A stretch of DNA of 64,000 nt. It comes from a virus. The DNA is taken from IMG/VR virus record IMGVR_UViG_3300047472_000449; one strand, written 5' to 3'. This document shows positions 439 to 62,328 of the stretch, piece by piece. Made by a program: the position numbers and the translations under genes. Below the pieces are notes generated by a model. It searched no databases. It saw only the letters and a program-made list of their open reading frames with translations, and had not been told where the DNA came from. Numbering within the stretch: position 1 is the first letter of the stretch; the number at the start of each line of letters is the position of its first letter.

Positions 439-478
439 ATAATATCCTTTTTCCATCATTGTGTCAACCACAGTGTCA
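439..478 (-). promoter_or_regulatory. sigma70 promoter with operator-like palindrome
   Basis: TTGACA (462-467), 17 bp, TATTAT (439-444); palindrome TGTCAAC-CAC-AGTGTCA at 462-478. Confidence 0.7.
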
Positions 479-537
479 AATAAGTGCTGGATTAACGGGG
501 GCTTACCACTTTATAATTTCAAGAAAAAAGGTGAGCC

Positions 538-1575
538 ATGAGCGAAAAAAACACCCCTGAGCAGCCGCAACCACTTGAGGCTTTTGATAAGTTTGAATCA
601 GCGCACGCATCAACAGCAGTTGGTGCTTTAAGTGTGTTGAATGTGATTCACCCTACTGTCCCTGGTGATGATGACTCAGATAGTAGTGATCAACTTGATG
701 ATGACGATTGGGACTACAGTAGTACAGATGAAGCCCCGGCGCCTCCAAGTGCTTTTGTGGACTCGTATGCTCGATACGAAGATGAAAGCTCGGCCAGTGC
801 AGAACGGGCCTTAAAATCGCCGCACCCACACCTGCTGCAACTCGATCAGGATCTTATCGATCTGCTTGAAGAGGACTTGCCTACCTTTGCGCATGGTCAA
901 AGTAGAGCGTTTGGTTTCAACACGTATTCAGCCCAACAAGAAAAACCGTCAGCTGAGTCGCCAGAAGTTGTGGAGAAACAGGATCTCAATTTCTACAACC
1001 CCTTCCGGCTGCCGGAGCCCGAGCGCCGCTATTTAAACGAGGACGACAATATTCGTTCGATTGTGTCCAGGGTTCAACCATTGACCGAGCCGGTTAAAGT
1101 AACGGCGATGTGTTCCAGTCATGTGTCCATCGCTATTGGCGACTACACGACTGTGCTTAAAAAGGAGAACTATGGCAGCGGACAAATGCTGACCATTGGA
1201 ATCAAAGAGCTGGAGGAATTCGTCATGGTGAAGATCAGCGGAAGCCTGATGGGTGGGCGCACCGTGGATCACGGCATTACCAACTCGGAATCTTCAGTGC
1301 TGTGTTTTGCCACCAAAGAGCTGGCCAAGCAGTTCAAGCGCGATTTGATCTGTGCGTATTCCGGCGTAGTGTCCCAGGCAGAAGACGATCCTGATTTTTG
1401 GCTGGGCTTGAGTGACGAAGAGTATGTGTCGGCGGTTCAGAATACGCGCACCCCAACCAACCGCCTGAAGATTGCTCGCAACATTGGGTTGGCGGTGGTG
1501 CTAGTGCCGGTAGGAATCTTTGTCGCTTCGTTTGCCGTGATTTATGGCGCGACGCTGGCCAAGTCCATGTTCTGA
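538..1575 (+). CDS. Hypothetical protein, acidic N-terminus and C-terminal transmembrane helix
   Basis: 345 aa ORF with RBS-like AAGGTGAG; D/S-rich stretch; hydrophobic tail IGLAVVLVPVGIFVASFAVIYGA. Confidence 0.75.
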   Translation: MSEKNTPEQPQPLEAFDKFESAHASTAVGALSVLNVIHPTVPGDDDSDSSDQLDDDDWDYSSTDEAPAPPSAFVDSYARYEDESSASAERALKSPHPHLLQLDQDLIDLLEEDLPTFAHGQSRAFGFNTYSAQQEKPSAESPEVVEKQDLNFYNPFRLPEPERRYLNEDDNIRSIVSRVQPLTEPVKVTAMCSSHVSIAIGDYTTVLKKENYGSGQMLTIGIKELEEFVMVKISGSLMGGRTVDHGITNSESSVLCFATKELAKQFKRDLICAYSGVVSQAEDDPDFWLGLSDEEYVSAVQNTRTPTNRLKIARNIGLAVVLVPVGIFVASFAVIYGATLAKSMF

Positions 1576-1600
1576 AGACGCCTCGGTCTGAGGCGTCTTT
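1575..1600. terminator. Intrinsic terminator hairpin between convergent genes
   Basis: AAGACGCCTC-GGTCT-GAGGCGTCTT. Confidence 0.7.
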
Positions 1601-1613
1601 GGGGCGCCCTGAG

Positions 1614-2255
1614 CTATGCAAGGAGGGCGTAACCACGCTTTGTAATGGTGGTGGCGATCCGAGCGAGAAAAATTACGTTCGTACTCGCGCTATCACCGTT
1701 GCAGGGCCATTCCATTTCAGCCATGGTTTGGCTGATGGCATCCAGCAGTTGCTCGCGAATCGCAGTATCCAGTGATCCGGAGACAGCTGATTCGATTTCC
1801 CGGACGGTCAGGAAGTTTTGTTGACCGATCATAAGCTCTCGGCATTCGCGCCAAAGTGTTACGGCCTGTTCGTCAGTCAGATTCAGGGCGAGCAGTTTGG
1901 CACAGAGCTTTTTCACGCACAGGCTGGCGTACTCTTCAGGTTTATCCATGAGGAAATACAGCTGATGCTCGAACATCGACAGCCAATTGATGCCTTCGTG
2001 CCAGTTCCATTTGCCGGAGAAGGGGTTGAGCCGGTCGCCCAGGTTGGCGCCTTTGGCTTTTTCAACGTCTTCAAAGCGGCAGGCGATCCAGCCATCTTTG
2101 ATGCCAATGGAAAGGATGCCGATATTGGTATTCAGCTGATATTCGTCTGGGTGGTTGGGAACCTCGGTTGCGCCCATTCCTAGAGCGATTCTTTCAACGT
2201 CGTATTTGAATTCCTGAATCTGTTTTTTGGTCATTTTGGCCATGGTTGGCGGCAT
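1614..2255 (-). CDS. Hypothetical protein
   Basis: 213 aa ORF, protein-like composition. Confidence 0.7.
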   Translation of the reverse strand: MPPTMAKMTKKQIQEFKYDVERIALGMGATEVPNHPDEYQLNTNIGILSIGIKDGWIACRFEDVEKAKGANLGDRLNPFSGKWNWHEGINWLSMFEHQLYFLMDKPEEYASLCVKKLCAKLLALNLTDEQAVTLWRECRELMIGQQNFLTVREIESAVSGSLDTAIREQLLDAISQTMAEMEWPCNGDSASTNVIFLARIATTITKRGYALLA

Positions 2256-2510
2256 CCTGTTTTGTAAAAGTATTTTGATCGATGATGGTGTTTGAAGGAA
2301 GCAACTCAGCTGGCGTAGGCTGTTTTTCCATTTACTAGCCGAACACCCCCGCCTCCGCAGAGAATTTCGGCGGCATGATCGTAGCCCAGACGCGTCTCTA
2401 CTCCGTCTATCAGCGTGATCGGCTCTACCTCGGAGTGGCGTTCTTGCAGCAAAACCTTGCCGATCCTCCGCCCGCGTTGACGTTTATTGGTGTTCACATC
2501 AGATCCTTTT

Positions 2511-2795
2511 TTAACGATGAGGGCGAACGAGATGGAGGGCAATCCTCGACAGGTTGGCCTGTGGGCTGTTAGGCCCTTTGCGCCAGCTGTACCAATTTCG
2601 ATCACACACGCCCACTAGCTGGTTGTCTTCATCCCAATGCAAGTCCATATCCCCGGCCAGCCATGATCGATGACACTGAGATCGGGCTATCAGTTTGCGC
2701 ATACTGCGTGGCAGCATAACGCCCTTGTAGCCCAGAAGGTAAAAACGGAAAGCCAAACTGATCATCACGTCAGTCCTTTTGACGAAGTTTGACAT
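2511..2795 (-). CDS. Small hypothetical protein
   Basis: MSNFVKRTDV... within ORF 2511..2843; start chosen by eye. Confidence 0.4.
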   Translation of the reverse strand: MSNFVKRTDVMISLAFRFYLLGYKGVMLPRSMRKLIARSQCHRSWLAGDMDLHWDEDNQLVGVCDRNWYSWRKGPNSPQANLSRIALHLVRPHR

Positions 2796-2991
2796 GCATT
2801 CTTGTGATGGCCGCACCGATGGCCATCCAGCTGATCGCGACACAGGCGTTGCGTGTAACGCTGTCAGGCTCGCTGTTGACCAGGGAAATGATCAACGCTG
2901 CCAATAGGAGCAAAAACAGATCCCCGCGACAGGTCAGCATGAATCGATCTGCCAGTGAGTAGAGCTTGGTCGTGGCGGTGATTTTTGTCAT
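2770..2991 (-). CDS. Small membrane protein
   Basis: 73 aa, two hydrophobic segments; downstream of a perfect promoter at 3057-3085. Confidence 0.6.
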   Translation of the reverse strand: MTKITATTKLYSLADRFMLTCRGDLFLLLLAALIISLVNSEPDSVTRNACVAISWMAIGAAITRMHVKLRQKD

Positions 2992-3056
2992 GGCGCAGTC
3001 CTTAGGGGTGCTTGGCGATGCCGCGCACTGGCGTCAGCATCACTCATCATCATTCA

Positions 3057-3085
3057 ATTATAGTAAGATCCGCAGCATTTGTCAA
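3057..3085 (-). promoter_or_regulatory. Perfect consensus sigma70 promoter
   Basis: TTGACA (3080-3085), 17 bp, TATAAT (3057-3062). Confidence 0.8.
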
Positions 3086-3316
3086 TATGAAAAACATTAG
3101 TCATCAGATTTAGTCGGCATCACTGATCATTAATTATTATTGATTAATTGTGAAATGGTCCGAGGTTTCAAATTTAAATTTGAATTATACCGAGACCCTT
3201 GCTTTATTTTGTTATTAATCATTTATAATCAATTTAACCATGGCCCGTTCACTCATAAGTCTCAGTGCTCGCTATGACGTGTAGATAATAAACAATAAAT
3301 ATTTGAGTGCAATGAA

Positions 3317-7213: not shown

Positions 7214-7372
7214 TTAGCGGTTACGCAGTTCCCAATCCAGGTTCGCCGGGCGGGTCGCGGTGACCGAAGGCGACTTGGCTTCAGCGGTGGCCGAGGTTTT
7301 CACAGCTTCACCTGCCATCGCAACGGCGGACAGGGACATTGCCACAACAACAGCCAGTACGGTACGTTTCAT
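7214..7372 (-). CDS. Secreted LRNR peptide, copy A (52 aa)
   Basis: MKRTVLAVVVAMSLSAVAMA-GEAVKTSATAEAKSPSVTATRPANLDWELRNR; GGAG RBS; own promoter. Confidence 0.85.
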   Translation of the reverse strand: MKRTVLAVVVAMSLSAVAMAGEAVKTSATAEAKSPSVTATRPANLDWELRNR

Positions 7373-7403
7373 GTGAAGCTCCATCTGTTTGGTTGATGTG
7401 TTC

Positions 7404-7443
7404 ATTATGACAAGACCCCTCAGTAATGTCAATGCTATTTACA
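7404..7443 (-). promoter_or_regulatory. Promoter/operator of peptide copy A
   Basis: TTGACA (7427-7432), 17 bp, CATAAT; TGTCAAT-GCT-ATTTACA. Confidence 0.75.
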
Positions 7444-10996: not shown

Positions 10997-11064
10997 GGCC
11001 TCAGTATAATAAGACCTCTTCAATCAGTCAACAGAAAAAACATCGTGTATGGGCCAGAAACCCT

Positions 11065-11538: not shown

Positions 11539-11625
11539 GGTTCAATCCTCTGAATTCGGCAGGGTGGAGCATGAATCGAAGGTGCTCAGTATAACGACGC
11601 CGACATAAATAGTCAATGTAATTTA

Positions 11626-12057
11626 CTATTTTTGGGCGGTTTTGGAGGCTTTTGTAGAACTCTCTTGCCATTGCAATCTGAGTTCGTCCCAGGCTTTCCG
11701 GGTGAAGCTTTCTGGCACCCTCCGTTGGGTCATGATGCACTGTAGCTGCCAGTCGGATAGGTTTTCACGCTCTTTCTTGTTCGGGTATTTGCGCTTCGAG
11801 GGATTGAGCGCGTTGTTGTAGTAATCGACGCGATCCTGAAGCGACAGTTCATGAAAATCGTCGTCGATTCCTTCGGAAAACCCTTTAAGGGCTTCGGTTT
11901 GAATCTCGTTGGGATACTGTTTAAAGATTCTAATGGCTTCACCAAACAATTTCATTCGCTCGGTAGAGCCCGCGTGCCAAGGCTCGTGTGCGGGCGCCCG
12001 GTTGAAACGCTCTAGAATAAGATCTAGCGCTTGTTGATCTGCGGCTGAAATCTGCAT
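11626..12057 (-). CDS. Hypothetical protein
   Basis: 143 aa; AAGGA RBS; promoter at 12173-12200. Confidence 0.7.
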   Translation of the reverse strand: MQISAADQQALDLILERFNRAPAHEPWHAGSTERMKLFGEAIRIFKQYPNEIQTEALKGFSEGIDDDFHELSLQDRVDYYNNALNPSKRKYPNKKERENLSDWQLQCIMTQRRVPESFTRKAWDELRLQWQESSTKASKTAQK

Positions 12058-12268
12058 GGATTTTCCTTTTTTGATCGAGCGTGTTTTTTGGGCAAGGATT
12101 TTTTGTGGTCATTCCACTCGGGGCATCCTGCCTGTTAGGCACTCAGCGGCTTTTAGACCAATAAAGAAACGTATTATATCGCCATCATGGATTTTGTCAA
12201 CATGACTGTCATTCAGCCCATAGCGTAAGGCGTCATGTGCTATAATTGATGGAAATAGAGGGATTTTC

Positions 12269-14310: not shown

Positions 14311-14586
14311 TTAGGCGTTGAGTGCCGACTTCAGAGTCTTGCCCACAGTGATCGTGACCGACTTTTTGGCTTCGATCTGGATCTCTGCGCCGGTTTTCGG
14401 GTTGCGACCTGTGCGAGCTGGGGAGTCCTTCGGTTTGAAGGAAACAAAGCCCTGCATTTTCACCTCATCACCATTTTTGACGGTTTCGGTGACGGTGGCC
14501 GCAAATTGCTTAAGCACTTCCTGTACGGTTTTTTGCGGAACGCCGGTTTCTTCAGCAATGGCTTTAATCAGTTCTGGCAGATGCAT
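14311..14586 (-). CDS. hup: HU family DNA-binding protein
   Basis: 91 aa; GFVSFKPKDSPARTGRNPKTGAEIQI signature. Confidence 0.92.
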   Translation of the reverse strand: MHLPELIKAIAEETGVPQKTVQEVLKQFAATVTETVKNGDEVKMQGFVSFKPKDSPARTGRNPKTGAEIQIEAKKSVTITVGKTLKSALNA

Positions 14587-14773
14587 GTTTAATTCCCTAT
14601 AAATAAAATCTATGTAACATTTAATATAGCATTAAATACTGCTGTGTCAATTGTATTTTGTCACTTTGTTGGGCTCGTTTACAATTAGTAAACAATTAGC
14701 GATTATTTGAGTTTGTTGTTCTGCGGGAAGATGTAGTGCATAAGGAGGTGATTGGCCTCCTTATGCGTCCAGA

Positions 14774-16004: not shown

Positions 16005-16107
16005 TGTCCGTAGAATATTGTGCCATTGTAGTTAACAAACCGTTCATTGTCAACCATAGTGACACGCAAATCACCTTACGCGATGCGTAAGAATTGCCCA
16101 GCGGGGG

Positions 16108-16543: not shown

Positions 16544-16942
16544 TTACTCGACCAGAAACTCGGTCAGCGTTGCGGCGGCATGCCACTGCGCATAGGCGAG
16601 CTGTTTTTCGACAGGGGCATGTTCAACCTGCGCCCAGCCATTGTTGAAGTCGAAACGGTAATTGCCCTTGGCGCGCTCGGCCTTGAGGTCAAGCCAATCA
16701 ATCACCGCTTGGCGGCTGAAGCGCCCTTCACGCGGTATTACGCCGTCGTTGAGATCAAAGGACAGGTCTTTGGTCAGGCTCATCCAGCCGTAGTCCAGCA
16801 TCACCGGTACAGGCTTGTCCCGTACTTGGCTGGTGCCGTTGCCGGTATCGAAGCCATTTTTCTTGACCATGCTGGCAACGTAGTTGTCACAGTACGCGAT
16901 CAGAGCCTTTTTGCTGAAGCGAGCGCCGTCGAAGATAAGCAT
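16544..16942 (-). CDS. Hypothetical protein
   Basis: Start moved to MLIFDGARF because the promoter -10 lies at 16970-16975. Confidence 0.65.
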   Translation of the reverse strand: MLIFDGARFSKKALIAYCDNYVASMVKKNGFDTGNGTSQVRDKPVPVMLDYGWMSLTKDLSFDLNDGVIPREGRFSRQAVIDWLDLKAERAKGNYRFDFNNGWAQVEHAPVEKQLAYAQWHAAATLTEFLVE

Positions 16943-16969: not shown

Positions 16970-17009
16970 ATTATAGGCAGGCGCAATCACAATGTCAATA
17001 CCAGTGACA
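16970..17009 (-). promoter_or_regulatory. Perfect sigma70 promoter with operator palindrome
   Basis: TTGACA-17-TATAAT; TGTCAAT-ACC-AGTGACA (16993-17009). Confidence 0.8.
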
Positions 17010-17851: not shown

Positions 17852-18240
17852 TGGTGGAGCCGGGGGGATTTGAACCCCCGTCCGTCAGTACTCCGCTGTC
17901 GGTACTACATGCGTAGCCAGATCTATTAAGTTAACCCGTGGCGACCCGATTGGCAGGGTGCGTTGGGCGAGTCGTGTAATGTTTAACTGCTTCGTCCACG
18001 ACGTACTAGGCAGCGATCCTGTTCTATCTGACAATCAGTTCGGGTTTACAGGCATCCCCTAGTGACTGCTGGCACCGAAGTGACCAGAAGTGCATGTCAG
18101 CTGCAATTAAGCAGCGAGAGCAGCACCGAAGGTTTCGTCATTGGCAACTATAAAAGTCGCAACAGTGGATTTACGAGTTCTGTTACCAACTCGGCATGCA
18201 CCTAAAGTTTCGTTACCAGCGTCGAATCCTAATCGGCCCC
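17852..18240 (-). ncRNA. ssrA: tmRNA (transfer-messenger RNA), tag ANDETFGAALAA
   Basis: 5' GGGGCCGATTAGGATTCGAC; 3' GGGGGTTCAAATCCCCCCGGCTCCACCA; tag reading frame 18107-18145. Confidence 0.97.
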
Positions 18241-18250
18241 AGTGGTTGTT

Positions 18251-18279
18251 ATAATAGTCAAAGTAGATGCCTGTGTCAA
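18251..18279 (-). promoter_or_regulatory. tmRNA promoter (lacks the operator half-site)
   Basis: TTGACA (18274-18279), 17 bp, TATTAT (18251-18256). Confidence 0.75.
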
Positions 18280-21223: not shown

Positions 21224-21625
21224 TTACCCCAAAAACCGCCAGCTTTTCATCTTGTCGGCTGCTTGCCAGAAGGCAAAGTCCATTTTCACATTGAAATCTT
21301 TGTGCATCACCTGGGCAAACGAACGTTGCGGTTCAAAACCATGCTTTTGCTGGTAATCATCAGCCAAGCTTTTCAGGTAATCCTGCACCGCTTCGATGCT
21401 GAAGCGCCCCTGCGCATTGTAGATCTTGCCTTCATAGGTCAGATCTTTGATGATTTTGCACAACCGGGCGGTGGCGTAGGCTTCCAGGGTGGCGGAGTCC
21501 TCACCGCGCATCTGTTCACAACTCCCAGTGGTGTCAAACAGGTAGCTGCGTTCCAGGCGCTCAACCATGTCAGTGCAGTAGGCAAATCCCATGGCCGCTT
21601 CAGGACGGGCGATGTTGTGCATCAT
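21224..21625 (-). CDS. Hypothetical protein
   Basis: 133 aa; AAGGA RBS. Confidence 0.65.
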   Translation of the reverse strand: MMHNIARPEAAMGFAYCTDMVERLERSYLFDTTGSCEQMRGEDSATLEAYATARLCKIIKDLTYEGKIYNAQGRFSIEAVQDYLKSLADDYQQKHGFEPQRSFAQVMHKDFNVKMDFAFWQAADKMKSWRFLG

Positions 21626-21887: not shown

Positions 21888-22028
21888 GGCGACATCCTGG
21901 GGTTTTGTTCAACTGATGAGCACAGTATATCGAGCAGTACATCATTTGTCAATGGCATTTACCACAAACAACATTGCCCCGCGTGATTAATTCAGGCGGG
22001 GTGTCGTTGATTGCGTCAGTGGCGTGGA

Positions 22029-22561: not shown

Positions 22562-23038
22562 TTACTTGGTAAAGGTCTTTTCGTCCATGGAGTACACCAC
22601 GAAGCGTTCATCAAGATCGGTGAGCGCCGGTTTGACATCAGACCATTTCAGCTTTCCGTTCTGACCACCAGGAACCGGCAGATAGATCTTGGTCAGGTTG
22701 AACTTGTCGCACAGTTGTACCAGCTCTCGAACCGACTTCTTGATCAAAGCCAGATCGCTGTTTTCACGCCATTTGTGCTTGGTTGGGAAGGCGACAACAC
22801 GGATCGGCTTCCCTTGGAAGATTTGGGTGCCGAGGTTGAAGACGCGATTGCCGTGTTCGACCAGGAGCTTGCCGAGCTTTACATCAATGTCCTGGAAGGT
22901 GTCACGAGCGAACTTCGCGGTGCCCTGCCCCATGACGGCGAGACCGTCTTTTTTGACTTCGCCATTGGTGGTCACGCAGATCACGTCACGCTCTTCACAG
23001 GTTTTGTACGGGTTACCAACCAGGGTCGAGAATGTCAT
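22562..23038 (-). CDS. Macrodomain protein (DarG/TARG1-like ADP-ribose hydrolase family)
   Basis: VTTN...MGQGTA; AFPTKHKWR..SDL..IKKS; YLPVPGGQNGKLKWSDV. Confidence 0.8.
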   Translation of the reverse strand: MTFSTLVGNPYKTCEERDVICVTTNGEVKKDGLAVMGQGTAKFARDTFQDIDVKLGKLLVEHGNRVFNLGTQIFQGKPIRVVAFPTKHKWRENSDLALIKKSVRELVQLCDKFNLTKIYLPVPGGQNGKLKWSDVKPALTDLDERFVVYSMDEKTFTK

Positions 23039-23141: not shown

Positions 23142-23181
23142 ATTATACTCAAGCTGGCACCAATTGTCAATCACATTGACT
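23142..23181 (-). promoter_or_regulatory. Perfect promoter with operator, driving the macrodomain gene
   Basis: TTGACA-17-TATAAT; TGTCAAT-CAC-ATTGACT (23165-23181). Confidence 0.8.
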
Positions 23182-25952: not shown

Positions 25953-26053
25953 TTCATTTGTTGGTTATTTTATATAAGAACAGATTTAATGTCAATTAAA
26001 ATGACAAAACCCCGCTTTGAAAGGTGGGGTTTTGTTAATTTTACGGTGGGTCG

Positions 26054-26803: not shown

Positions 26804-26846
26804 TGTGAGTTATCATACCTTTCCCAACATCAATTGTCAACTACAT

Positions 26847-27563
26847 TTACGCTGGTACTGGAAAATCCCTGATGCATTCGTTGAGGTATTGGTTAATCAA
26901 GAATACAACAGCTTTGAGCTGCTCAGGATCGTGTTTTCTTAATTTTATAATAATGACGTAATTATTATTACCATTGATATGTGCCGAACTGACACCCGTC
27001 CCTTCTTCAATCATTCGCTCAAGTTCACTCCAGTTTCCAGCCGATCTTCTCTCGTGGAGTGCCATTGCTTGGCGTTGCGTCATCTTAATTTCATATTGAT
27101 AGAGGGATAGCCGTGGTTTCAGATCTGTCCTGAAGTCTTCAAAACGGTAACTGTGTTCAGCGGGGCTATTATTTTCCATGTGCTGAGCTTCAATTTTCAC
27201 CGCTGATCGCTGACAACTATAGTCCGTGGCAAATTGCTGAATGAGCATTCCTTCCACCAGTTTTAGGTCATCGAAGCCTTGGTACGAAACAGTGGTGGTA
27301 AATTCAGCAATTTTGTCATTAGACGGTACAGACAACCTGAAGGCCGCGCAGTAGTTGTTTCTGCCTTCGATGGTTTTGCGCCTTACTTGCCCAGAATGGC
27401 CTGGAAGTGGCTGAAACTCCAATAGGTCTTTGTCGCAGAGAGCTGCAATGGCAGTTTTGTCTGCTGGTTCAAAATCAGTCCAGTCATCATGGCTGTATTT
27501 TTCAAGCGCTTGTTTTTGCTGTTGAGTCAGTCGTGGAGTTTTACTGGGCATCTTGTTTTCCAT
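26847..27563 (-). CDS. Hypothetical protein; N-terminal domain shared with 25161
   Basis: LCDKDLLEFQP..G..G..RRK.....YC. Confidence 0.7.
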   Translation of the reverse strand: MENKMPSKTPRLTQQQKQALEKYSHDDWTDFEPADKTAIAALCDKDLLEFQPLPGHSGQVRRKTIEGRNNYCAAFRLSVPSNDKIAEFTTTVSYQGFDDLKLVEGMLIQQFATDYSCQRSAVKIEAQHMENNSPAEHSYRFEDFRTDLKPRLSLYQYEIKMTQRQAMALHERRSAGNWSELERMIEEGTGVSSAHINGNNNYVIIIKLRKHDPEQLKAVVFLINQYLNECIRDFPVPA

Positions 27564-30866: not shown

Positions 30867-31004
30867 CAGGACTCCAAAAGCTCAGGGATCGAATCGTTTT
30901 GATGGTGTCAATTATACGCCGTCACGCACATTTGTCAACTGTATTTACGGTTGTTTGCGTCAAATTATCATCTCCAGAATTTCATAAAGGAGATGATTGC
31001 GCCC

Positions 31005-31949: not shown

Positions 31950-32118
31950 TGCAACTCCTAGAGGGATAAAACCGTGTGGTTTTTGTTGGGGTTATTGTAT
32001 CAAAACCATCAATAAGTGTCAATGTCAGTGACAGCGCTTGTCGCAGTAGAATTGATGGCTTGCGGGAGGGAGTGAGGTGACATACCAACTTAGCGGCCAC
32101 CTTTTTAGGCATTTGCGG

Positions 32119-33914: not shown

Positions 33915-34019
33915 CAATAGCTCCGACTGTGCGGCTTGTTCTGAGGGTTTCATTATACGCCACCCGGCTAAATTGTCAATATGAATTACCATGCGGTGGG
34001 GTGGGCGCCCTCCCCTTGC

Positions 34020-35200: not shown

Positions 35201-35443
35201 ATGAAATATTCCGTACTGGCTCTGACCCTGGCCCTGTCGATGTCCGCCTCTGCCCTCGCGCTGGCTGAAGAAGCCCCTATCGTCATCAGTGTGGCAGCGA
35301 ACGACGCCAAGCCCGCTGAGGTGGCCTCTCAGGCAACCAATGCGCCTGTTGTGAAGCAGATCACTGCGAAAGCCGAACATCGTTCGCTGTCCGGCGATGC
35401 GACCCGACCAAAAAATCTGAATTGGGATCTGCGCAATCGCTGA
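35201..35443 (+). CDS. Secreted LRNR peptide, copy B (80 aa)
   Basis: Signal peptide MKYSVLALTLALSMSASALALA; ends ATRPKNLNWDLRNR; promoter TTGACA-16-TATGAT at 35071-35098. Confidence 0.85.
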   Translation: MKYSVLALTLALSMSASALALAEEAPIVISVAANDAKPAEVASQATNAPVVKQITAKAEHRSLSGDATRPKNLNWDLRNR

Positions 35444-40482: not shown

Positions 40483-40653
40483 GAAAACTCCTTTCATCGA
40501 CATCGACTGGTATCGTTGAATTATACCCACCAGCCACGTATTTGTCAATATGAATGACTGCACCACCCAAGAATTTGACCATTTAATAATGTGTAGTGTG
40601 ACGAAAGATCGGCATTGTCCGTCTACTGATAAACATGACAAAAAGGGATTTAC

Positions 40654-43290: not shown

Positions 43291-43387
43291 CTTTCCCAGT
43301 AAATTCTGAATATGGGTCTATTATAGCGCCGCAACCCGTGATTGTCAATCACAGAAACACTTCCTTGGGCTTTTCCTGCCCCAACAA

Positions 43388-43433: not shown

Positions 43434-43871
43434 TTAGCGGTTGCGAAGATCAGCTTCCAGGTTTTTGGGCTTGGTCGCATCACTGGCGACTACGCCGCTG
43501 GCAGCATCGGTGGTAACTTTGCCGGACAGTGGGCGTGGAATGTCAGGGGTGCCAGGGGCTTTCACTTCGCCAGTCGGTGCCGGGCCGGTGGGAGTTGGCG
43601 CGGTTTTGCCGGATGCAGCGGCGGTGGCTGCGGACTTGGTTGGAGCAGCTTTCGCGGATGCGGCGGTTTTGACCGGTGCAGCTTTGGCGGTTGCGGCGGC
43701 TTTGGCTGGTGCAGCCTTGGTCGATGCGACTTTTTCGACCGGTGCAGCTTTGGCCGAAATAGCAGTTTCAACCGGTGCGACAGCGGTGGCTTTTTCTTGA
43801 GCCATGGCGTTCACCGACAGGCCGGACAGCGCTACGGCCATCGCGAGGATCAGGGAGTATCGTTGTTTCAT
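43434..43871 (-). CDS. Secreted LRNR peptide, copy C (145 aa; KAAP-rich linker)
   Basis: Signal peptide; ends ATKPKNLEADLRNR. Confidence 0.85.
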   Translation of the reverse strand: MKQRYSLILAMAVALSGLSVNAMAQEKATAVAPVETAISAKAAPVEKVASTKAAPAKAAATAKAAPVKTAASAKAAPTKSAATAAASGKTAPTPTGPAPTGEVKAPGTPDIPRPLSGKVTTDAASGVVASDATKPKNLEADLRNR

Positions 43872-43956: not shown

Positions 43957-44175
43957 TTAACGGTTACGCAGTTCCCAGTCCAGGTTTTTCGGACGAGTCG
44001 AGCGAGGCGATTGCGATGGCGAGGTGCTGGTTGCTTTCGGGGTGGCATCAGTGGTCGCTTGCGACGCATCTTTTGCAGTTTGGACAGCGACCGGTTCTTT
44101 CGGTTGATCTGCGGCCACGGCGGCAACGGAGACAGCGGACAGCGACAGCGCCAGAACGAGTGCCAACTTTTTCAT
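43957..44175 (-). CDS. Secreted LRNR peptide, copy D (72 aa)
   Basis: Signal peptide; ends STRPKNLDWELRNR; promoter at 44217-44245. Confidence 0.85.
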   Translation of the reverse strand: MKKLALVLALSLSAVSVAAVAADQPKEPVAVQTAKDASQATTDATPKATSTSPSQSPRSTRPKNLDWELRNR

Positions 44176-44312
44176 GTGTATCTCCAGGGTCAGAACAGTT
44201 TTTTCTTTGATGGTTTATTATGATGCTTCTTTTACTATTTGTCAATAGCATTTACTGCTATTTGTCGCTTCGACCTGCTCACACTTTTGTGGGCAGGCCA
44301 AAGGCGATGGGA

Positions 44313-44471
44313 TTAGCGGTTACGCAGTTCCCAGTCCAGATTCGCCGGACGGGTCGCGGTGACCGAAGGGGATTTGGCGGTAACGCCAGCTTTCGGCTGA
44401 TCAGCGGCCATCGAGACAGCGGAAACGGCGGACAGCGACAGAGCCAGAACGAGTGCCAGAGTCGATTTCAT
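44313..44471 (-). CDS. Secreted LRNR peptide, copy E (52 aa; not in ORF track)
   Basis: Manual translation MKSTLALVLALSLSAVSAVSMAADQPKAGVTAKSPSVTATRPANLDWELRNR; GGAG RBS; promoter at 44514-44542. Confidence 0.85.
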   Translation of the reverse strand: MKSTLALVLALSLSAVSAVSMAADQPKAGVTAKSPSVTATRPANLDWELRNR

Positions 44472-44615
44472 GTGAATCTCCATTGCGTGACAGGATGTTT
44501 GCTTTGATGGTTTATTATGGCGATTCTTTTACTAATTGTCAATCTTATTTACATTTGTTTTTTGAGACATTGGCCCGCCTCACTCACTGGTGAGGCAGGC
44601 CAAAGGCCGTGGGGT

Positions 44616-44774
44616 TTAGCGGTTACGCAGTTCCCAGTCCAGGTTCGACGGGCGGGTCGCGGTGACCGAAGGGGACTTGGCGGTAGCGGTGGCCGAGGTT
44701 TTCACAGCTTCACCTGCCATCGCAACGGCGGACAGGGACATTGCCACAACAACAGCCAGTACGGTACGTTTCAT
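44616..44774 (-). CDS. Secreted LRNR peptide, copy F (52 aa; not in ORF track)
   Basis: Manual translation MKRTVLAVVVAMSLSAVAMAGEAVKTSATATAKSPSVTATRPSNLDWELRNR; perfect promoter at 44806-44834. Confidence 0.85.
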   Translation of the reverse strand: MKRTVLAVVVAMSLSAVAMAGEAVKTSATATAKSPSVTATRPSNLDWELRNR

Positions 44775-44920
44775 GTGAAGCTCCATTTGCTTGGTTTGTG
44801 GGGTTATTATAAGTATCTATACCATGATTGTCAATCATATTTTCATTATTATTTGAATATTTATCTACCCGCCACTAAAGCAATCCACGGCCACACGTCC
44901 ACCCGACTCCCCCATTGATT

Positions 44921-45781: not shown

Positions 45782-46549
45782 TCAGGCGGCGTCTGGCGTC
45801 CAGTTGACCGCCTTGTCGAAGTCCTCTTGACTCATTTGCACGCCGACCCGGCAAACGCGCAGAAAAGCGTTACGAGCTTCCTCGGCGGTGGCGTTCTCGA
45901 TCAAAGTTACGACGGTCTGCGCATTGCGAAAGGCATTGGTGCATTGGTCGTGAAGCTTGATGAACGCTTCGATTTCAGCGCTATCCGCCCCAGCCTTTTC
46001 CCACTCGTTCCAGCGCTGGCGCAGCAGTTGATTGATGGTGTGGTTGCCGCTGTCGCAAAAGGGCAGCAGTGACCAAGCTGGCAACCGAAAGCCGACATCG
46101 GCCTCTTCGGCAGGCACAAACATCATGCGCTGCTCCTTGCTGTCCAGCACCAAACGCTGACCGGCCAGCCATGTCGAGGATTCTTCGGTACTCATGCCTT
46201 CGAACAGCGGCAGACCCGCAAAGTCCCTTACCATCATCCAGGCCAGTGTTGCCATGCGGTTCTGCCCGTCCAGCAGCAGGCCCACAGCGCCACGATCACC
46301 CTCTTTAGGGCCTGTCAGCGGGCCGAGGCGTCCTTTCGAGACCTTGTTCAGATCCGCCTTGTTGCCCGGCTCCCACAGCACAAAGCCGCCGATAGGGAAA
46401 TTCGACAGAATTGAATCGCACAGACTTTCCACGTCGTCCTTGATCCAGACATAGGGCCGTTGCATGGCGGCAGGTTGCATGCGACCTGCCGCACAGTCTT
46501 CGATCATGCTGGACAGGTACGGCGTGCTCTGGCGAATTCGCATGGTCAA
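45782..46549 (-). CDS. Stand-alone DUF262 (GmrS-like, ParB/Srx-fold) protein
   Basis: QRPYVW...LCDSILSNFPIGGFVLWE...LLDGQNRMATL. Confidence 0.8.
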   Translation of the reverse strand: MTMRIRQSTPYLSSMIEDCAAGRMQPAAMQRPYVWIKDDVESLCDSILSNFPIGGFVLWEPGNKADLNKVSKGRLGPLTGPKEGDRGAVGLLLDGQNRMATLAWMMVRDFAGLPLFEGMSTEESSTWLAGQRLVLDSKEQRMMFVPAEEADVGFRLPAWSLLPFCDSGNHTINQLLRQRWNEWEKAGADSAEIEAFIKLHDQCTNAFRNAQTVVTLIENATAEEARNAFLRVCRVGVQMSQEDFDKAVNWTPDAA

Positions 46550-46584: not shown

Positions 46585-46624
46585 ATTATAGCCAGACTTA
46601 CCACCAAAGTCAATCACATTGACT
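46585..46624 (-). promoter_or_regulatory. Promoter with perfect 7-3-7 operator palindrome
   Basis: TTGACT-17-TATAAT; AGTCAAT-CAC-ATTGACT (46608-46624). Confidence 0.8.
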
Positions 46625-47462: not shown

Positions 47463-47729
47463 GCAGCTCTCCAGTACACGCCGTTTCCGGTTCCGCTCGT
47501 TGCCGCCAGCATGATTGAAGAAGCGCATCATGAGGGTGAGGGTGTTGCCTGCGTACTGACCGTTCCCGAGAGGGTGAGCGGGGCCACTTCGCCAAGTGAA
47601 ACACGTCTTCTACAGTGCTTGTCTGCGAATCCGTTGTATGGCGCCATTATGGCGAGGTGACACATAATTGTCAATGTCATTTATTGCAATTCAAGACAGT
47701 GGGGCGCCGTTACTCCTGACTTGATTGCT

Positions 47730-49268: not shown

Positions 49269-49338
49269 AGTGGCTTCACGTCAATTTGTTTGACGCTTAT
49301 TATATAATCCACCCACATCTTTGTCAACCCAAATGACA

Positions 49339-50638: not shown

Positions 50639-50926
50639 GGCAGCGCTCTCAGTAATCAGTAGTGAGTGGTCGAAAATCTAGTTGGTCAGTATGACAATGG
50701 CGAGCCTCATTGTCAATGGAAATGACGGTGGAGGGAGAGATAGAGCCCCACCGCTGGCCACCTTCAGCGTAAGCTGGAAAAAAAGGACATCGACAGATTT
50801 TCGGCGTGCAAGGCCCTTTGATTTCGCTTGATCCAGCAGTCTATTTGCCAGCAATTCATTGACAAAACACCATTATGTCAATACAATAAACACTACCAGA
50901 TAAGCTCACACTGTATCGAGGGCGCC

Positions 50927-51421: not shown

Positions 51422-51461
51422 TGTCATTGCTATTGACATTGATCCACAGGAAAAGTATAAT
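51422..51461 (+). promoter_or_regulatory. Perfect promoter with operator
   Basis: TGTCATT-GCT-ATTGACA; TTGACA-17-TATAAT. Confidence 0.8.
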
Positions 51462-52572: not shown

Positions 52573-52887
52573 TCAGTGCGGCTTGAGCGGCTTCAGGTCA
52601 TACGGCGTTTTAGCGTCAGGTGGCAGGCCACGTGCTTCACGAAACTGATGAGCTTGTGCCTCAGCGCGCATATCGGACAGGATGTCGAATTGTGCGTTGT
52701 ACTCAGGATTGACGCTGTTGGTGGCTCGGTAGGCGGCGTTCACTTTTTTACGCTGGGCTTCGATTTCGAGGTTCATGCGGCAATTCCTGAGTAAATCGTC
52801 ACTGGGTATGGTTGATACTATAACAATCCTACCGAAAATGTCAACATCTTTGACATGCTGGACGATGATTATGTCATTGTCTTCCAT
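52573..52887 (-). CDS. Hypothetical protein
   Basis: 104 aa ORF; start uncertain. Confidence 0.5.
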   Translation of the reverse strand: MEDNDIIIVQHVKDVDIFGRIVIVSTIPSDDLLRNCRMNLEIEAQRKKVNAAYRATNSVNPEYNAQFDILSDMRAEAQAHQFREARGLPPDAKTPYDLKPLKPH

Positions 52888-54013: not shown

Positions 54014-54282
54014 TGACTGACGAAGCGCAGAAACCGCTCAAAAAAGAGAACGTCGGCTGATCCTGCTGAGCTATTTGTTTGTGTTTTGCTGTATTTATTT
54101 TGCAGGCAATTATCTTGTCGATAAGTCATCTGAAGCGACCGACAAAATGAAACAGAATGTCGGTGTTGCCGAACAGGTCATCAAGGATACACAAAACCTT
54201 CTTAGCGACACAAAACCATCAACACTGTCGCCACACCACTAATTCTCAACTAATCATCAATTTGATATTCAACGGAGTCACC

Positions 54283-56604
54283 GTGATTTCAGGCCCTATT
54301 CGCAATAAAAAAGACGCCACAACACTTAATCAAAAAAATCTCGTGACTGATGTGACCAACCTCAACGGCACGCGGGTATTTGCCGAGGTGACCCCAGCTG
54401 GCATTTATGATGTGGTCAGGGCGCTGACGTGTTTTGATGGCCCGGTTTCGATTGGTGGTGGACGCTTCAGCATGGGTGGCCAGATCGCCAGTGAGGGCAG
54501 TCTTCATTTGGACATGCGCAACCTTGCGAACATTGATGAACCTAAGTTCAACAACGGTATCCACACCATTTTTGTTCAGGCTGGGGCGACGTGGAAGGAT
54601 GTTCAGCGTCGCATTGATCCGCATGACTTGTCTGTGTCGATTATGCAAACCTATTCCAACTTCACCGTGGGTGGCTCGCTGAGTGTGAATGTGCATGGCC
54701 GATATGTCGGCCAGGGCGCGCTGATTCATTCGGTGCAGTCCATTTTGCTGGTGTTGGCTGACGGCACGCTTAAAACAGCATCACGCACCGAAAATCCCGA
54801 GTTGTTCTTCGGCGCCATTGGTGGTTATGGTGGCATCGGCGTAATCGTTGGGGCTACGTTGATCTTGGCCAAAAATACCAAGGTTGAGCGTTCGTCGAAA
54901 GTCATGCCGCTGGAGGATTACCTGCACTACTTCCAGACCGAAGTGGCCAGTAAAGCCGATCAGGTGGTGTTTCATAACGGCAATCTGTGCCCGCCTCACT
55001 ACTCCACCGTACGAGCCATTTCGTGGAGTCAGACCGACAAGCCAGTCACCCAGCCTGCTCGCCTGTACGAGAAGCGCAAACTGTACCCGCTGCACAAGTA
55101 CGCAATGTGGTCGGTCAGCGAGCTGCCGTTCGGCAAATGGCGTCGTGAGCACATCATTGAGCCGCTGCTGGATCGCAAACCGGCTGTACATTGGCGCAAC
55201 TACGAGGCCGGGTACGACGTGGCTGAACTGGAGCCGGTCACCCGCAGCTACCGAACCTATGTGCTTCAGGAGTACTTTGTGCCGGTCACGCACTGCGCAG
55301 CTTTCGTCAAGCGCATGGGGGACGTGCTCAACCAGCACAACGTCAACGTCATCAACGTGTCTATTCGTCACGCCAAGGCGGATCAGGAGTCGTACCTGTC
55401 CTGGGCGCAGGAAGAGGTGTTTGCCTTTGTCCTGTACTACAAGCAGGGTGTGACACCGGCTGACCAAAAGGCAGTGGGGGTATGGACACGTGAGCTGGTG
55501 CGTCTTGCTTCGCAGTTCGGCGGTTCGTTCTACCTGCCTTATCAGCCGCATGCCACCCGTGAGCAGTTCGATGTGGCCTACCCTCGGGCGGCAAAGTTGT
55601 TTGCTCTCAAAGACCGTCTTGACCCTCATTATCGTTTCCGCAATGTGATTTGGGAGACGTATTACAAAGAATCCTCGGCCACTCAAAGCCGTAATCCGAA
55701 TCACCAACGCATGGAAATCACGGGCATGGAAGGCGAGCTGAGCATTGCAAACTCTGAGTTTCGGGGAGTGATGGCTGACAAGTACTGGCAAGATCAGCTC
55801 TATTTGTTCCTGCAAAACGTGTATGGCCTTTACCCAGCGGCGTCGCTGTTCCAATTGATCGAGCAGCAGTGCGTCGTCTACATGCGTGATGAGGCCATCT
55901 ATCGTTCCACTCAGGAGCGCCTGGGTGAACTGACCAACCCGGTGCGGGCTGCGTTCATGGGCCTTGCGGCGCTGAGCAAGCAGAAGAAAGAAATGGCCGT
56001 CCAAGTGCATTCGTTGACCGGTGGCGGGCGTGCTCGTGCGGTAAACAGCTACGTTGAGATTGGCTCCAAGGGCCGCTACTTCAAGGGCAGTTGCAACACG
56101 AAGGAAGTGGTGCAAGCGCAGTTCGTCGAAGAAAAACCAGTCGGCTACTCGCCGTTGGACATTCTTGAGCGTGGTGCGGTGCCGATTACCGGTCAACAGT
56201 ACCTGCTGGCTGATTACGAGCCGTTGCAAGTGACCGGGCGCGGCCAGATGGACATGGTGACCTGCTTTATCGGCCTACACCATATTGCGCCGGAAAAACT
56301 GGAGGCGTTCGTGCGCTCGATTGCCGACTCGCTGGCCACCGGGGGTGTGTTCATCTTGCGCGAGCACAATGTCGAGACCCCGGAGATGCACCGTTTTGTC
56401 TCGCTGATCCATACCGTGTTCAACATGGGTCTCAAGGAGTCCTGGGACACTGATAGCCGCGAACTGCGCCACTTCCGCAGCCTGAGCTACTGGATCAACT
56501 TGCTCGACAGTGTGGGCCTCACGCTGGAGTCAGGGCCGATCTATCAAAAAGGTGATCCATCCCTTAACGGCCTGATGATGTTCCGTCGCCGTGCTGATGA
56601 CTGA
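54283..56604 (+). CDS. FAD-binding oxidoreductase (PCMH/VAO-type) fused to a C-terminal SAM-methyltransferase-like domain
   Basis: GGGRFSMGGQ, AGATW, FTVGGSLSVNVHG, LFFGAIGGYGGIG, DP.YRF; C-terminal VEIGS.GRY, VTCFIGLHHI, GGVFILREH. GTG start with GGAG RBS. Confidence 0.85.
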   Translation: MISGPIRNKKDATTLNQKNLVTDVTNLNGTRVFAEVTPAGIYDVVRALTCFDGPVSIGGGRFSMGGQIASEGSLHLDMRNLANIDEPKFNNGIHTIFVQAGATWKDVQRRIDPHDLSVSIMQTYSNFTVGGSLSVNVHGRYVGQGALIHSVQSILLVLADGTLKTASRTENPELFFGAIGGYGGIGVIVGATLILAKNTKVERSSKVMPLEDYLHYFQTEVASKADQVVFHNGNLCPPHYSTVRAISWSQTDKPVTQPARLYEKRKLYPLHKYAMWSVSELPFGKWRREHIIEPLLDRKPAVHWRNYEAGYDVAELEPVTRSYRTYVLQEYFVPVTHCAAFVKRMGDVLNQHNVNVINVSIRHAKADQESYLSWAQEEVFAFVLYYKQGVTPADQKAVGVWTRELVRLASQFGGSFYLPYQPHATREQFDVAYPRAAKLFALKDRLDPHYRFRNVIWETYYKESSATQSRNPNHQRMEITGMEGELSIANSEFRGVMADKYWQDQLYLFLQNVYGLYPAASLFQLIEQQCVVYMRDEAIYRSTQERLGELTNPVRAAFMGLAALSKQKKEMAVQVHSLTGGGRARAVNSYVEIGSKGRYFKGSCNTKEVVQAQFVEEKPVGYSPLDILERGAVPITGQQYLLADYEPLQVTGRGQMDMVTCFIGLHHIAPEKLEAFVRSIADSLATGGVFILREHNVETPEMHRFVSLIHTVFNMGLKESWDTDSRELRHFRSLSYWINLLDSVGLTLESGPIYQKGDPSLNGLMMFRRRADD

Positions 56605-57776: not shown

Positions 57777-57816
57777 TGTCAATGGCATTGACTATTGACC
57801 GTCGGGCGGGTATAAT
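57777..57816 (+). promoter_or_regulatory. Promoter with operator
   Basis: TGTCAAT-GGC-ATTGACT; TTGACT-17-TATAAT. Confidence 0.75.
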
Positions 57817-60132: not shown

Positions 60133-60318
60133 GACCTACTCCTGATAGCCTTCCCGCAAGGCTGGACTGATACCGCACACCGAAATCCGAAGCGCTGATT
60201 TAATGTGTGTAGTTTAACAGCAAGCCAAGCCATTGTCAATGGCAATGACTATTCTGGGCGTATTTGTACAAGGCCCTACAGCGTGATCTGGCGGGCCTTG
60301 TTCGATTTCTGCGCCAGC

Positions 60319-60918: not shown

Positions 60919-60974
60919 ATCATGTCCAGGCTGGCGTTCGCGGTGATGGTTATCAACTCGCGGGGAATGGGATA

Positions 60975-61014
60975 ATTATACGCTTCTCGAATGCCATTGT
61001 CAATCATATTGACA
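60975..61014 (-). promoter_or_regulatory. Perfect promoter with perfect operator palindrome
   Basis: TTGACA-17-TATAAT; TGTCAAT-CAT-ATTGACA (60998-61014). Confidence 0.85.
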
Positions 61015-61055
61015 ATAGGCTGGCGCTTTTCTGCGCCAGCCTGACGAGCAAAAAA

Positions 61056-61304
61056 TCAAACCACTCGCATGCTGCTCAGGTCTTCTTCCTCATGGACGCT
61101 AACCGAGTTTTTGTAGTCAAAGAACGCCTTGTGTTTGGTGAAGAATTGCGGCGACATGGTGTTGAAGCCGGTTACTTTGTCACCGCTTTCCCGGTGTGTC
61201 ACACGGGCTTCGATGAACTCACTGTTGCGATGAGTGCGAACCTGATAACCCATGCCTTTCAGCTCTCGGCGGTACTGAGCGAGGGTGATTTCAGTTTTGC
61301 TCAT
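61056..61304 (-). CDS. Hypothetical protein
   Basis: 82 aa; promoter/operator at 61339-61378. Confidence 0.65.
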   Translation of the reverse strand: MSKTEITLAQYRRELKGMGYQVRTHRNSEFIEARVTHRESGDKVTGFNTMSPQFFTKHKAFFDYKNSVSVHEEEDLSSMRVV

Positions 61305-61399
61305 GTCGGCAGTCCTGGTCTTCTATTTGAGAGTGATCATTATACCGTCATTGAAATGAATTGTCAATGCCATTGACGGCAATTTGCCACTATCTCATA

Positions 61400-61598
61400 A
61401 ATAAAAAAAGCCCACAATGTGGGCTCGGTGACTGTTGAATAAGTGCAGCGCGGCCAGTCTTTCCGCCTGCACTAGGGCAATTACCGCGATGGCCCCTCGG
61501 GTGAGTATTTTCAACTAATAATGGCTGAATACACTATACGTACGCACTAAATGCGACCGGTGTGACACATCCGGTTAGACACTTAGAATTGCACCCGT
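61400..61598 (-). ncRNA. Candidate ~200 nt structured ncRNA
   Basis: Extended -10 TGTTATAGT (61605-61613); several hairpins; terminator 61403-61425; no ORF. Confidence 0.4.
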
Positions 61599-61652
61599 CC
61601 TCACACTATAACAATCCTTTAGGATGAACTCCAGACAATTCCATTGTGTCGA

Positions 61653-62150
61653 TTACTTATCGGACAGCCAAGAGAAAAAGCCGTCAATCGTCACTTCATC
61701 ACCCTCAAAATGCCCCAGATCGATGCAGAGCTTTTTCTCGGCGTTTTCCTGGATAGACAGCCAGTGCATAAAGTCTTTTTGTGCTTGCAGGTAATGCGCT
61801 CGCTCGAAAGAGAAAAAGGTTTTGGGCAGGAAGCCGTAGCCGTTTTCCAGCTTGGTTCGCCACTCGACCGAATGCTTCCGGGTCTTGATGTAGATGCCAT
61901 CCCAGATGCTTGCGCAACCCGCGACACCGCAGGAGCAAGAGAATGGTTCAAACAGCGAGAACTGCTGGCGGGTAAAGCCGTCTGGATCATGATTGGCCCA
62001 GTAGTGGGCGATGGAGTAGACATCCACATGGTTCCACTTGATGGCAGTGCCATTGATTTCGAGCGCAACCTTGAGCAGCAACACGTCGGGCATGCTTTCG
62101 ACCGGTTTGAACTCACCGGTAATCTTGATCGTGTCCTGGTTCATGAGCAC
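61653..62150 (-). CDS. Phage-type hypothetical protein (CSCG..GC motif)
   Basis: FEPFSCSCGVAGCASIWDGI. Confidence 0.7.
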   Translation of the reverse strand: MLMNQDTIKITGEFKPVESMPDVLLLKVALEINGTAIKWNHVDVYSIAHYWANHDPDGFTRQQFSLFEPFSCSCGVAGCASIWDGIYIKTRKHSVEWRTKLENGYGFLPKTFFSFERAHYLQAQKDFMHWLSIQENAEKKLCIDLGHFEGDEVTIDGFFSWLSDK

Positions 62151-62328
62151 CCCTTTGGTCTTTGTCTTAATCTGTTGTGTGGGTGTCGATTATAGGCTGC
62201 TTCGCACCAGCAGAACAGTCTTGACGGTCGAAAATCTGACATTATCACTAAATTAATAATGTTTTTATGATTGACAATAAGTGCTCGCAGCGGTATACTG
62301 GCAACCTTCCCAACACGGCGAGGTTGCC

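Follow-up and report, generated by a model that had tools for sequence, protein, structure and literature searches.

Giant megaplasmids carry about a thousand mostly uncharacterised genes, which raises the question of how their hosts tolerate them. A 64,000-nucleotide stretch of the IMG/VR virus record IMGVR_UViG_3300047472_000449 (the whole of which is here called the window), from what appears to be an element of this kind, poses the question at the level of single promoters. Nearly every gene in it has a promoter of maximal strength, an arrangement that would be very costly if uncontrolled, and many of these promoters share a 17-bp palindrome in which one arm is the −35 box. What is the palindrome for? 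The placement of its copies suggests that one dimeric repressor probably uses the palindrome (21 bp if the weakly conserved flanks are counted) as its operator and there competes with sigma70 for the −35 box. One shared site would then give control over most of the gene set.

Near-consensus promoters in the window

Promoters were counted wherever TTGACA (at most 1 mismatch) was separated by 16 to 18 nt from TATAAT (at most 2 mismatches, with A2 and T6 kept). This census found 46 near-consensus sigma70 promoters in the window, compared to 6.1 (maximum 9) in block shuffles. The −35 box was perfect in 38 of the 46, and 14 promoters were letter-perfect copies of TTGACA-N16-18-TATAAT. An earlier sequence-only reading of this DNA had counted about 35 consensus promoters; strong promoters are abundant, as it said, and its figure was slightly low.

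Census promoters lie 20 to 100 nt 5′ of start codons and, like most of the gene set, the majority (37 of 46) belong to the minus strand. Seen on the plus strand, the −10 box is to the left at most sites, so these promoters read leftward and, on the transcribed strand, the second arm of the palindrome comes before the −35 box, where the sequence-only reading had placed it. Terminators were only weakly enriched by a simple scan (31 versus 22.7), and insulated cassettes are not claimed.

A palindrome in fixed register with the −35 box

The palindrome had been described as the degenerate 17-mer TGTCAAY-N3-AWTKACW. With at most 2 mismatches allowed on both strands, this pattern matched 60 times in the window, compared to 5.2 ± 2.5 (maximum 12) in 100 dinucleotide shuffles. 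All 24 start coordinates previously listed as good sites were among the matches, and the copies at 46608 and 60998 are perfect palindromes, as reported. From a second list of eight weaker sites, those at 3080, 12195, 44829, 47669, and 62260 were also recovered, while those at 11026, 32421, and 43343 proved more degenerate.

When the 46 promoters were aligned on the −35 hexamer, the hexamer was almost invariant, the base preceding it was A in 34 of 46, and next came a free 3-nt gap and a conserved block, T-G-T-(C/A)-A-A-T. The resulting consensus is TGTMAAT-N3-ATTGACA, with the −35 hexamer in the promoter-proximal arm. Four positions of the upstream arm (G, T, A, and the last T, at −10, −9, −7, and −5 when counted from the hexamer's first T) are strongly conserved, with 0.6 to 0.9 bit each. 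The positions mirroring the TTG of a −35 box, which is the best conserved part of that element, are loose, giving an arm pattern of xGTnAnT. An arm matching TGTCAAT in at least 5 of 7 positions was found exactly 3 nt from A-TTGACA in 25 of 46 promoters, versus 0.7 expected, and each of the other arm spacers (0 to 2 and 4 to 11 nt) was found in 0 to 3 promoters. Allowing C or A at arm position 4 brought the number of arm-bearing promoters to 27 of 46.

The two 7-bp arms span approximately −46 to −30, with a center near −38, and their own centers are 10 bp apart, which puts both arms on one face of the helix. A two-fold symmetric site of 14 to 21 bp with half-sites about one helical turn apart is the format of classical operators bound by dimeric helix-turn-helix (HTH) or winged-HTH proteins. 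In arm-bearing promoters, the hexamer tends to be followed by A-T, and T at +7 after the hexamer is found in 20 of 27 promoters with the arm versus 7 of 19 without it (p = 0.016). Because the +7 T tracks the arm, the site extends beyond the bases read by sigma and is nearer 21 bp than 17.

Repetition on this scale could in principle reflect chance, base composition, or the copying of one promoter cassette, and one promoter pair (44245 and 44542) is clearly duplicated. Outside the motif, however, every other pair is at most 60% identical, the information content of spacers and flanks is about zero, and no shuffle came near the observed count, leaving an artefact a negligible probability. With only this one paralogous pair, the sites have independent origins and are under selection. 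Strict copies of the palindrome (at most 2 mismatches) number 21 in the window, and 21 of 21 are intergenic.

Operator-like sites were assigned to genes by combining the 17-mer matches, the promoter census, and the scoring of the arm. The motif thereby gives an easy way to annotate this element's transcription units (gene lengths are in amino acids [aa]):

462-478, minus strand: leftward promoter whose −35 box carries an operator-like palindrome, arm 5/7
7427-7443, minus strand: putative operator (arm 7/7) and promoter of a gene for a 63-aa LRNR peptide
11611-11627, minus strand: putative operator and promoter of a 157-aa gene
12195-12211, minus strand: putative operator and promoter, arm 5/7, 16-nt spacer
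16048-16064, minus strand: putative operator and promoter of a 242-aa gene
16993-17009, minus strand: putative operator and perfect-consensus promoter of a 132-aa paralogue gene
21947-21963, minus strand: putative operator and promoter of an operon ending with an R2K ATP-grasp gene
23165-23181, minus strand: putative operator and perfect promoter of the macro-domain gene at 22562-23038
25990-26006, minus strand: putative operator and promoter of a 263-aa gene
26835-26851, minus strand: putative operator and promoter
30933-30949, minus strand: putative operator and perfect promoter of a 266-aa gene
32017-32033, minus strand: putative operator and promoter of a two-gene operon, a 137-aa paralogue followed by a HigA/XRE-like HTH gene
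33974-33990, minus strand: putative operator and perfect promoter of a 277-aa gene
40543-40559, minus strand: putative operator and perfect promoter of a 282-aa gene
44240-44256, minus strand: putative operator and promoter of a gene for an LRNR peptide, a paralogue of the 44537 unit
44537-44553, minus strand: putative operator and promoter of an LRNR peptide gene, arm 7/7
44829-44845, minus strand: putative operator and perfect promoter of an LRNR peptide gene
46608-46624, minus strand: perfect palindrome and promoter of a GmrSD_N/DUF262 gene
47669-47685, minus strand: putative operator and promoter of a 264-aa gene, arm 5/7
49322-49338, minus strand: putative operator and perfect promoter of a 170-aa gene
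50711-50727, minus strand: putative operator and promoter of a DUF551 gene
51422-51438, plus strand: putative operator and perfect rightward promoter of an 81-aa gene
52839-52855, minus strand: putative operator and promoter of a 67-aa gene
57777-57793, plus strand: putative operator (arm 7/7) and rightward promoter of a 53-aa gene
60234-60250, minus strand: putative operator and promoter of a 121-aa gene
60998-61014, minus strand: perfect 17-bp palindrome and perfect promoter of a 190-aa gene
61362-61378, minus strand: putative operator and perfect promoter of an 82-aa gene

A variant arm, TGT followed by a T-rich run, lies at the same 3-nt distance in the sites at 3080-3096, 11026-11042, 43343-43359, and 62260-62276. 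These belong to the strong promoters 3085, 11031, 43348, and 62271 and were all among the sites earlier called weaker. They may be a weaker operator class or mark a second specificity.

Related megaplasmids as controls

Homologues of the window's 998-aa and ATP-grasp proteins, 29 to 43% identical, are encoded by giant plasmids of Pseudomonas and Vibrio, including pMPPla107, pBASL58, and the plasmid of Pseudomonas sp. FeN3W. The element also has its own transfer-messenger RNA (tmRNA) gene (17852-18240, minus strand; Rfam, 185 bits; tag ANDETFGAALAA), 74 to 80% identical to those of pBASL58, the Pseudomonas aeruginosa 847-kb plasmid p2014S05-249-1, and pMPPla107, so that the tmRNA looks like a family trait. 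On the strength of these protein and tmRNA homologues, the window is a distant member of the Pseudomonas/Vibrio megaplasmid family. Megablast of 18 kb of the window against phages and plasmids and tblastn against phages returned no match, an exact 34-mer from the window was absent from viral_contigs and genome_contigs, and protein-seeded scans of metagenome_contigs and genome_contigs revealed no relative.

Five relatives were compared to the window: pMPPla107, pBASL58, the 910-kb FeN3W plasmid (CP136011.1), a P. aeruginosa plasmid, and a Vibrio vulnificus plasmid. Exact consensus promoters numbered 4, 12, 2, 4, and 0 in these five (0.3 to 0.97 Mb), versus 14 in the 64-kb window. Strict palindromes numbered 5, 8, 6, 12, and 0 per ~0.9 Mb, none with fewer than 2 mismatches, so that 21 copies in 64 kb stand against 0 to 12 in ~0.9 Mb. 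The first 400 kb of pMPPla107 contained 54 promoter-like sites, or 8.6 per 64 kb, which is near chance, and the arm was present at 1 of the 54, with no upstream-arm signal. The combination of dense perfect promoters with the palindrome is specific to this lineage, and the upstream arm is far commoner in the window than in either shuffles or related megaplasmids.

These comparisons also bear out the view, taken in the sequence-only reading, that a fixed 3-nt spacer and a second arm go beyond what sigma70 alone would explain. Strong promoters in general have UP elements, A/T tracts upstream of the −35 box; a UP element, or any other feature that involves only sigma70 or alpha, was rejected as an explanation here, as the arm is specific for G/T/A/T and 53 of the 54 promoter-like sites counted in pMPPla107 lack it. 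One window-type site preceding the pMPPla107 orthologue of the 998-aa gene was set aside as chance, as no −10 box beside it is convincing and the gene has no operator in the window.

A different arrangement was found in the FeN3W plasmid, which has 30 exact TTGAC-N5-GTCAA palindromes versus ~0.9 by chance and 0 in a backwards control. The same sequence occurs 5 times each in pMPPla107 and pBASL58 and is missing from the Vibrio and P. aeruginosa plasmids. With flanks included, the consensus of the FeN3W sites is (T)A-TTGACA-N3-YGTCAAT. A −10 box (at most 2 mismatches) comes after it at the right distance in 25 of 30 sites, versus ~6 expected, and the palindromes precede annotated genes. The FeN3W plasmid, whose host strain is in culture, looks like the carrier of a sister regulon in which the arm order is swapped. 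It shares with the window the two 7-mers, the 3-nt gap, the −35 hexamer as one arm, and the megaplasmid family, but its second arm is downstream of the −35 box, inside the promoter spacer, and its sites are less dense. No site with the FeN3W arm order was found in the window, and the window-type order occurs only 0 to 2 times in the relatives. Only the −35 arm is common to both layouts, which makes occupancy of the −35 hexamer their shared feature.

Promoters that lack the upstream arm

The arm is missing at promoters 18279 (tmRNA), 14650 (HU-family gene), 19609, 35071, 50859, and 53226 and at a few weak ones. Those of the tmRNA, 19609 (given as 19604), 35071, 50859, and 53226 had already been singled out as arm-less. 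Two of these units are as follows:

18245-18279, minus strand: tmRNA promoter without the upstream arm, serving as an operator-free control
14311-14586, minus strand: gene for an HU/IHF-family DNA-binding protein (PF00216, E = 2e-28), with a strong promoter at 14650 and no arm

An HU-family gene behind an operator-free promoter, together with a site that resembles a −35 box, might favor an architectural role, in which the palindrome binds an HU/IHF-like protein or a ParB/KorB-like clamp loader, or serves as an inverted −35-like box that captures RNA polymerase. Such a role is very unlikely. HU is not sequence specific, the arm departs from the −35 preferences of sigma70, and an IHF site was rejected because the consensus fits poorly by inspection, with the spacing off by one. 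Local promoter control is the better reading, given that the sites keep strictly to one register with the −35 box and are lacking away from promoters. Integron-type or other recombination sites and restriction-modification motifs were discarded because they give no reason for a strict −35/−10 register, as were divergent promoters with back-to-back −35 boxes, because no −10 box is found beyond the upstream arm and overlap is confined to the 14650/14658 pair.

At promoter 50859, that of a NinX-like gene, the upstream arm is missing, and a palindrome-like site (50876-50892), one arm of which is perfect, covers the spacer and −10 box. This site may be an operator at a different position.

Probable repression at the −35 box

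If the palindrome is a repressor's operator, each regulated unit would consist of a near-perfect sigma70 promoter and an operator over approximately −46 to −30, with the −35 hexamer contained in the proximal arm. A bound dimer would occupy the hexamer and shut out sigma70 region 4. Promoters would stay off while the repressor is present and active and would fire together when it is absent, for example in a naive cell, or inactivated. Arm-less promoters, such as those of the tmRNA, the HU-like gene, and some others, would escape control.

Site geometry and perfect core promoters suggest repression rather than activation, since promoters that are already perfect would make an activator unnecessary. 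Activator-dependent promoters normally have poor −35 boxes, and class II activators of the CRP/FNR type are centered near −41.5. A dimeric regulator that activates, or that activates or represses according to a ligand, could nevertheless be imagined at the same site, in the manner of class II activators or of GlnR/TnrA. The palindrome would then mark promoters that depend on an element factor, or gain from it, and are not silenced. The center near −38 is only ~3 bp off the classical class II position, and the format TGTNA-N7-TNACA is that of GlnR/TnrA, which act in both directions (PMC9948412). Against this, the −35 boxes are not weak (38 of 46 are perfect), core promoters are perfect or nearly so, the site fully covers the −35 hexamer, the window encodes no MerR/TnrA-like protein, and in FeN3W the second arm is inside the spacer, where such an activator cannot sit. 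Activation or dual control is accordingly judged improbable.

Search for the regulator

Several observations weigh against a single dimeric repressor. The arm is absent from 19 of 46 promoters, and many of the arms that are present are degenerate, with only the four positions strongly conserved. Inverted arms with key G:C pairs 14 bp apart do not have the geometry of ArdK, the plasmid R388 repressor compared below. The window holds no regulator gene that matches the KorA/ArdK, MarR, cI, or MerR models, and R388 ArdK and KorA searched by phmmer against the six-frame window gave a best E of 0.58. Finally, the regulator may be encoded by the host.

Pfam and NCBIfam scans of ~70 open reading frames (ORFs) of the window found no HTH protein except HU. 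The only sequence-specific HTH protein seen in the window is HigA/XRE-like, with XRE-family homologues on other plasmids:

31124-31480, minus strand: HigA/XRE-like HTH protein, 118 aa, a low-probability candidate regulator (E = 0.004 to Escherichia coli HigA)

Classical dimeric regulators such as lambda cI/Cro and MarR have genes beside their own operators, which are often multiple. The HigA/XRE-like gene is second in an operon with a single putative operator, and the N-terminal half of the protein is acidic. No toxin-like partner was seen, none of the five related megaplasmids has a homologue, and the protein shows no similarity to the cI-like repressor of metagenome contig L192 described below. 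As so large an element would encode many such proteins, this one is a poor bet as the regulator. In FeN3W, the KORA/TrfB model (PF16509) had one sub-threshold match only, at a level where control genomes match too.

That the window yielded no regulator also leaves room for a global regulator of the host chromosome (quorum sensing, stress, or SOS) into which hundreds of element promoters would be plugged. Half-sites such as TGTAAA presumably resemble the boxes of response regulators with LuxR-type HTH domains. A host reader is nonetheless unlikely: the site is absent from five Pseudomonas/Vibrio megaplasmid relatives, the different arm order in one of them fits private, co-evolving regulators, and in the regulons of this design known from plasmids, the repressor is a product of the plasmid (PMC3937220). 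That none of the five relatives has the site suggests instead that the element itself encodes the repressor.

The same palindrome in other DNA

Scanning for the exact site with its promoter found 16 unrelated metagenome contigs. Two contigs have two adjacent copies directly 5′ of a MarR-family gene (L203:1377-1425 and L199:410-458), and another has four copies 5′ of a gene for a cI-like repressor with HTH_3 and Peptidase_S24 domains, beside a terminase small subunit gene (L192:541-741). Occurring at the genes of several HTH and winged-HTH families, the palindrome is an ordinary operator that does not by itself name a regulator family. In genome_contigs, the matches listed for the site with promoter were mostly single ones in Clostridia and Patescibacteria, which are uninformative about relatives, and a narrower site pattern gave 4 unrelated matches. 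Also among the matches listed, several metagenome-assembled genome contigs of Clostridia and Chloroflexi (L009, L011, L023, L026, L036, and L040) have −10 boxes on both sides of the palindrome, forming back-to-back divergent consensus promoters that have one palindromic −35 pair in common.

How would the predicted repressor be released? R388 offers an analogy that makes release in a naive cell plausible, as in the zygotic induction proposed by the sequence-only reading. Release triggered by a ligand or by SOS, through a cleavable repressor, would fit equally well; as the cI-like case on contig L192 illustrates, an S24-type repressor can use this palindrome.

Other genes of the window

Nearly all ORFs in the window have no Pfam match. 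Recognisable proteins include a UDP-glucose dehydrogenase, an R2K ATP-grasp protein, a fusion of a flavin adenine dinucleotide (FAD) oxidase with a methyltransferase, tetratricopeptide repeat (TPR) proteins, and proteins with DUF1653, GmrSD_N, DUF551, NinX, DUF3016, and macro domains. Both domain calls of the sequence-only reading were correct, with GmrSD_N/DUF262 at 45782-46549 and the macro domain at 22562-23038. It had also placed three LRNR peptide genes under the shared site; such genes do lie behind operator promoters, but the window has six of them.

The six secreted peptides ending in LRNR are encoded at 7214-7405, 35201-35443, 43434-43871, 43957-44175, 44313-44471, and 44616-44774. 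Those at 7214, 43957, 44313, and 44616 are directly behind promoters with the putative operator, the one at 35201 has an operator-free promoter, and the one at 43434 has no promoter of its own in the census. Three paralogous ORFans of 132 to 137 aa (16544-16942, 21224-21625, and 31536-31949, all minus strand), whose C-terminal halves are alike by eye, each lie within a unit driven by a promoter with the putative operator. On the plus strand, an 815-aa fusion of a FAD-binding oxidase (FAD_binding_4/ALO) with a C-terminal S-adenosylmethionine-dependent methyltransferase domain (54157-56604) is followed by a 381-aa ORFan and has no consensus promoter directly upstream.

Comparison with known regulons

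Global repressors with repeated operators are textbook knowledge for plasmids and phages. What is unusual here is the number of sites (~27 per 64 kb, which if uniform means several hundred per element), the near-universal perfect promoters, and the use of the −35 hexamer as a half-site with an arm order that varies among relatives. A broader proposal, which we hold tentatively and as less than an even chance, is that one element protein reads the −35 box much as sigma70 region 4 does, that it holds several hundred perfect-consensus promoters in a whole-replicon on/off switch, and that relatives have made private versions by rearranging the two 7-mers. If this is true, no other single-operator regulon known from a mobile element would come close to it in size, and the switch would limit the cost of carrying about a thousand foreign genes. 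The binding protein, if found, would be a switch with which hundreds of dark-matter genes could be activated together and their functions studied, and would permit a genome-scale test of transcriptional overshoot after transfer.

Among plasmids, the IncP-1 plasmids RK2 and RP4 use a few repressors (KorA, KorB, and TrbA) with palindromic operators at fixed positions in many strong backbone promoters, as predicted here. There, however, the KorA operator is on the −10 box (PMC9723621) and KorB class I sites are just upstream of the −35 box. RK2/RP4 also have only ~7 to 12 sites, versus dozens per 64 kb here. Larger numbers are known from the C1 operators of phage P1 and the gp71 stoperators of mycobacteriophage L5, in which one repressor has tens of sites across a mobile genome. 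Those sites are asymmetric and many stoperators act as roadblocks inside transcription units, whereas the sites described here have two-fold symmetry, lie between genes, and keep register with the −35 box.

The GlnR/TnrA box of Bacillota has an identical 17-bp format, and its operators often overlap the −35 box (PMC9948412). Those are chromosomal nitrogen regulons read by MerR-family proteins, whereas the window has no MerR match and its targets are ORFans rather than nitrogen-metabolism genes. Format alone matches, and the likeness is one of resemblance only.

In the CUP elements of the IncN plasmids pKM101 and R46, a repeat of hundreds of bp places a strong promoter before establishment genes. 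Like the palindromes, they are repeated upstream elements with strong promoters, but they are long repeats, and here only 17 to 21 bp are shared while the rest of each promoter is unrelated. CUP elements, which ArdK-type proteins repress, are mentioned in work on R388 (PMC9723621). The sequence-only reading had drawn its plasmid co-repression analogy from CUP, and R388 itself strengthens the analogy, as its ArdK operator repeats the window's 7-mer ATTGACA in a 7-3-7 layout and takes up the equivalent place in the promoter (PMC9723621).

ArdK, a KorA-family dimeric HTH protein, represses five R388 promoters from an operator that is a direct repeat of a hexamer, one copy of which is the −35 box, and its recognition motif matches that of sigma70 region 4 (PMC9723621). 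It tolerates 3- to 5-bp spacers and also represses synthetic inverted repeats, and operator topology varies widely across the family (PMC9723621). The R388 regulators are all repressors in negative feedback, and their targets overshoot in a burst after conjugation (PMC3937220). In the R388 DNA, three promoters were read as purine-TTGACA, 3 nt, A-TTGACA-A, a 17-nt spacer, and a −10 box. Both systems thus have a 7-3-7 layout of ATTGACA, in which the proximal copy supplies a strong sigma70 promoter with its −35 box and the other is at ~−46 to −40. Dispersed promoters fall under one dimeric HTH protein in R388, as is predicted for the window. R388 differs in its direct arms and in having 5 targets on a 34-kb plasmid, versus inverted arms and ~27 sites in 64 kb, and no PF16509 protein was found in the window. 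TTGACA-type arms, one of them overlapping or forming the −35 box, are what the window shares with KorA/ArdK regulons, but its inverted arms on the −35 box belong to neither branch, as ArdK uses a direct repeat and KorA an inverted one on the −10 box. If the broader proposal is true, the second arm would be upstream and inverted in the window, downstream and inverted in FeN3W, and upstream and direct in R388, a series in which operator topology and repressor would have co-evolved around the same −35 hexamer.

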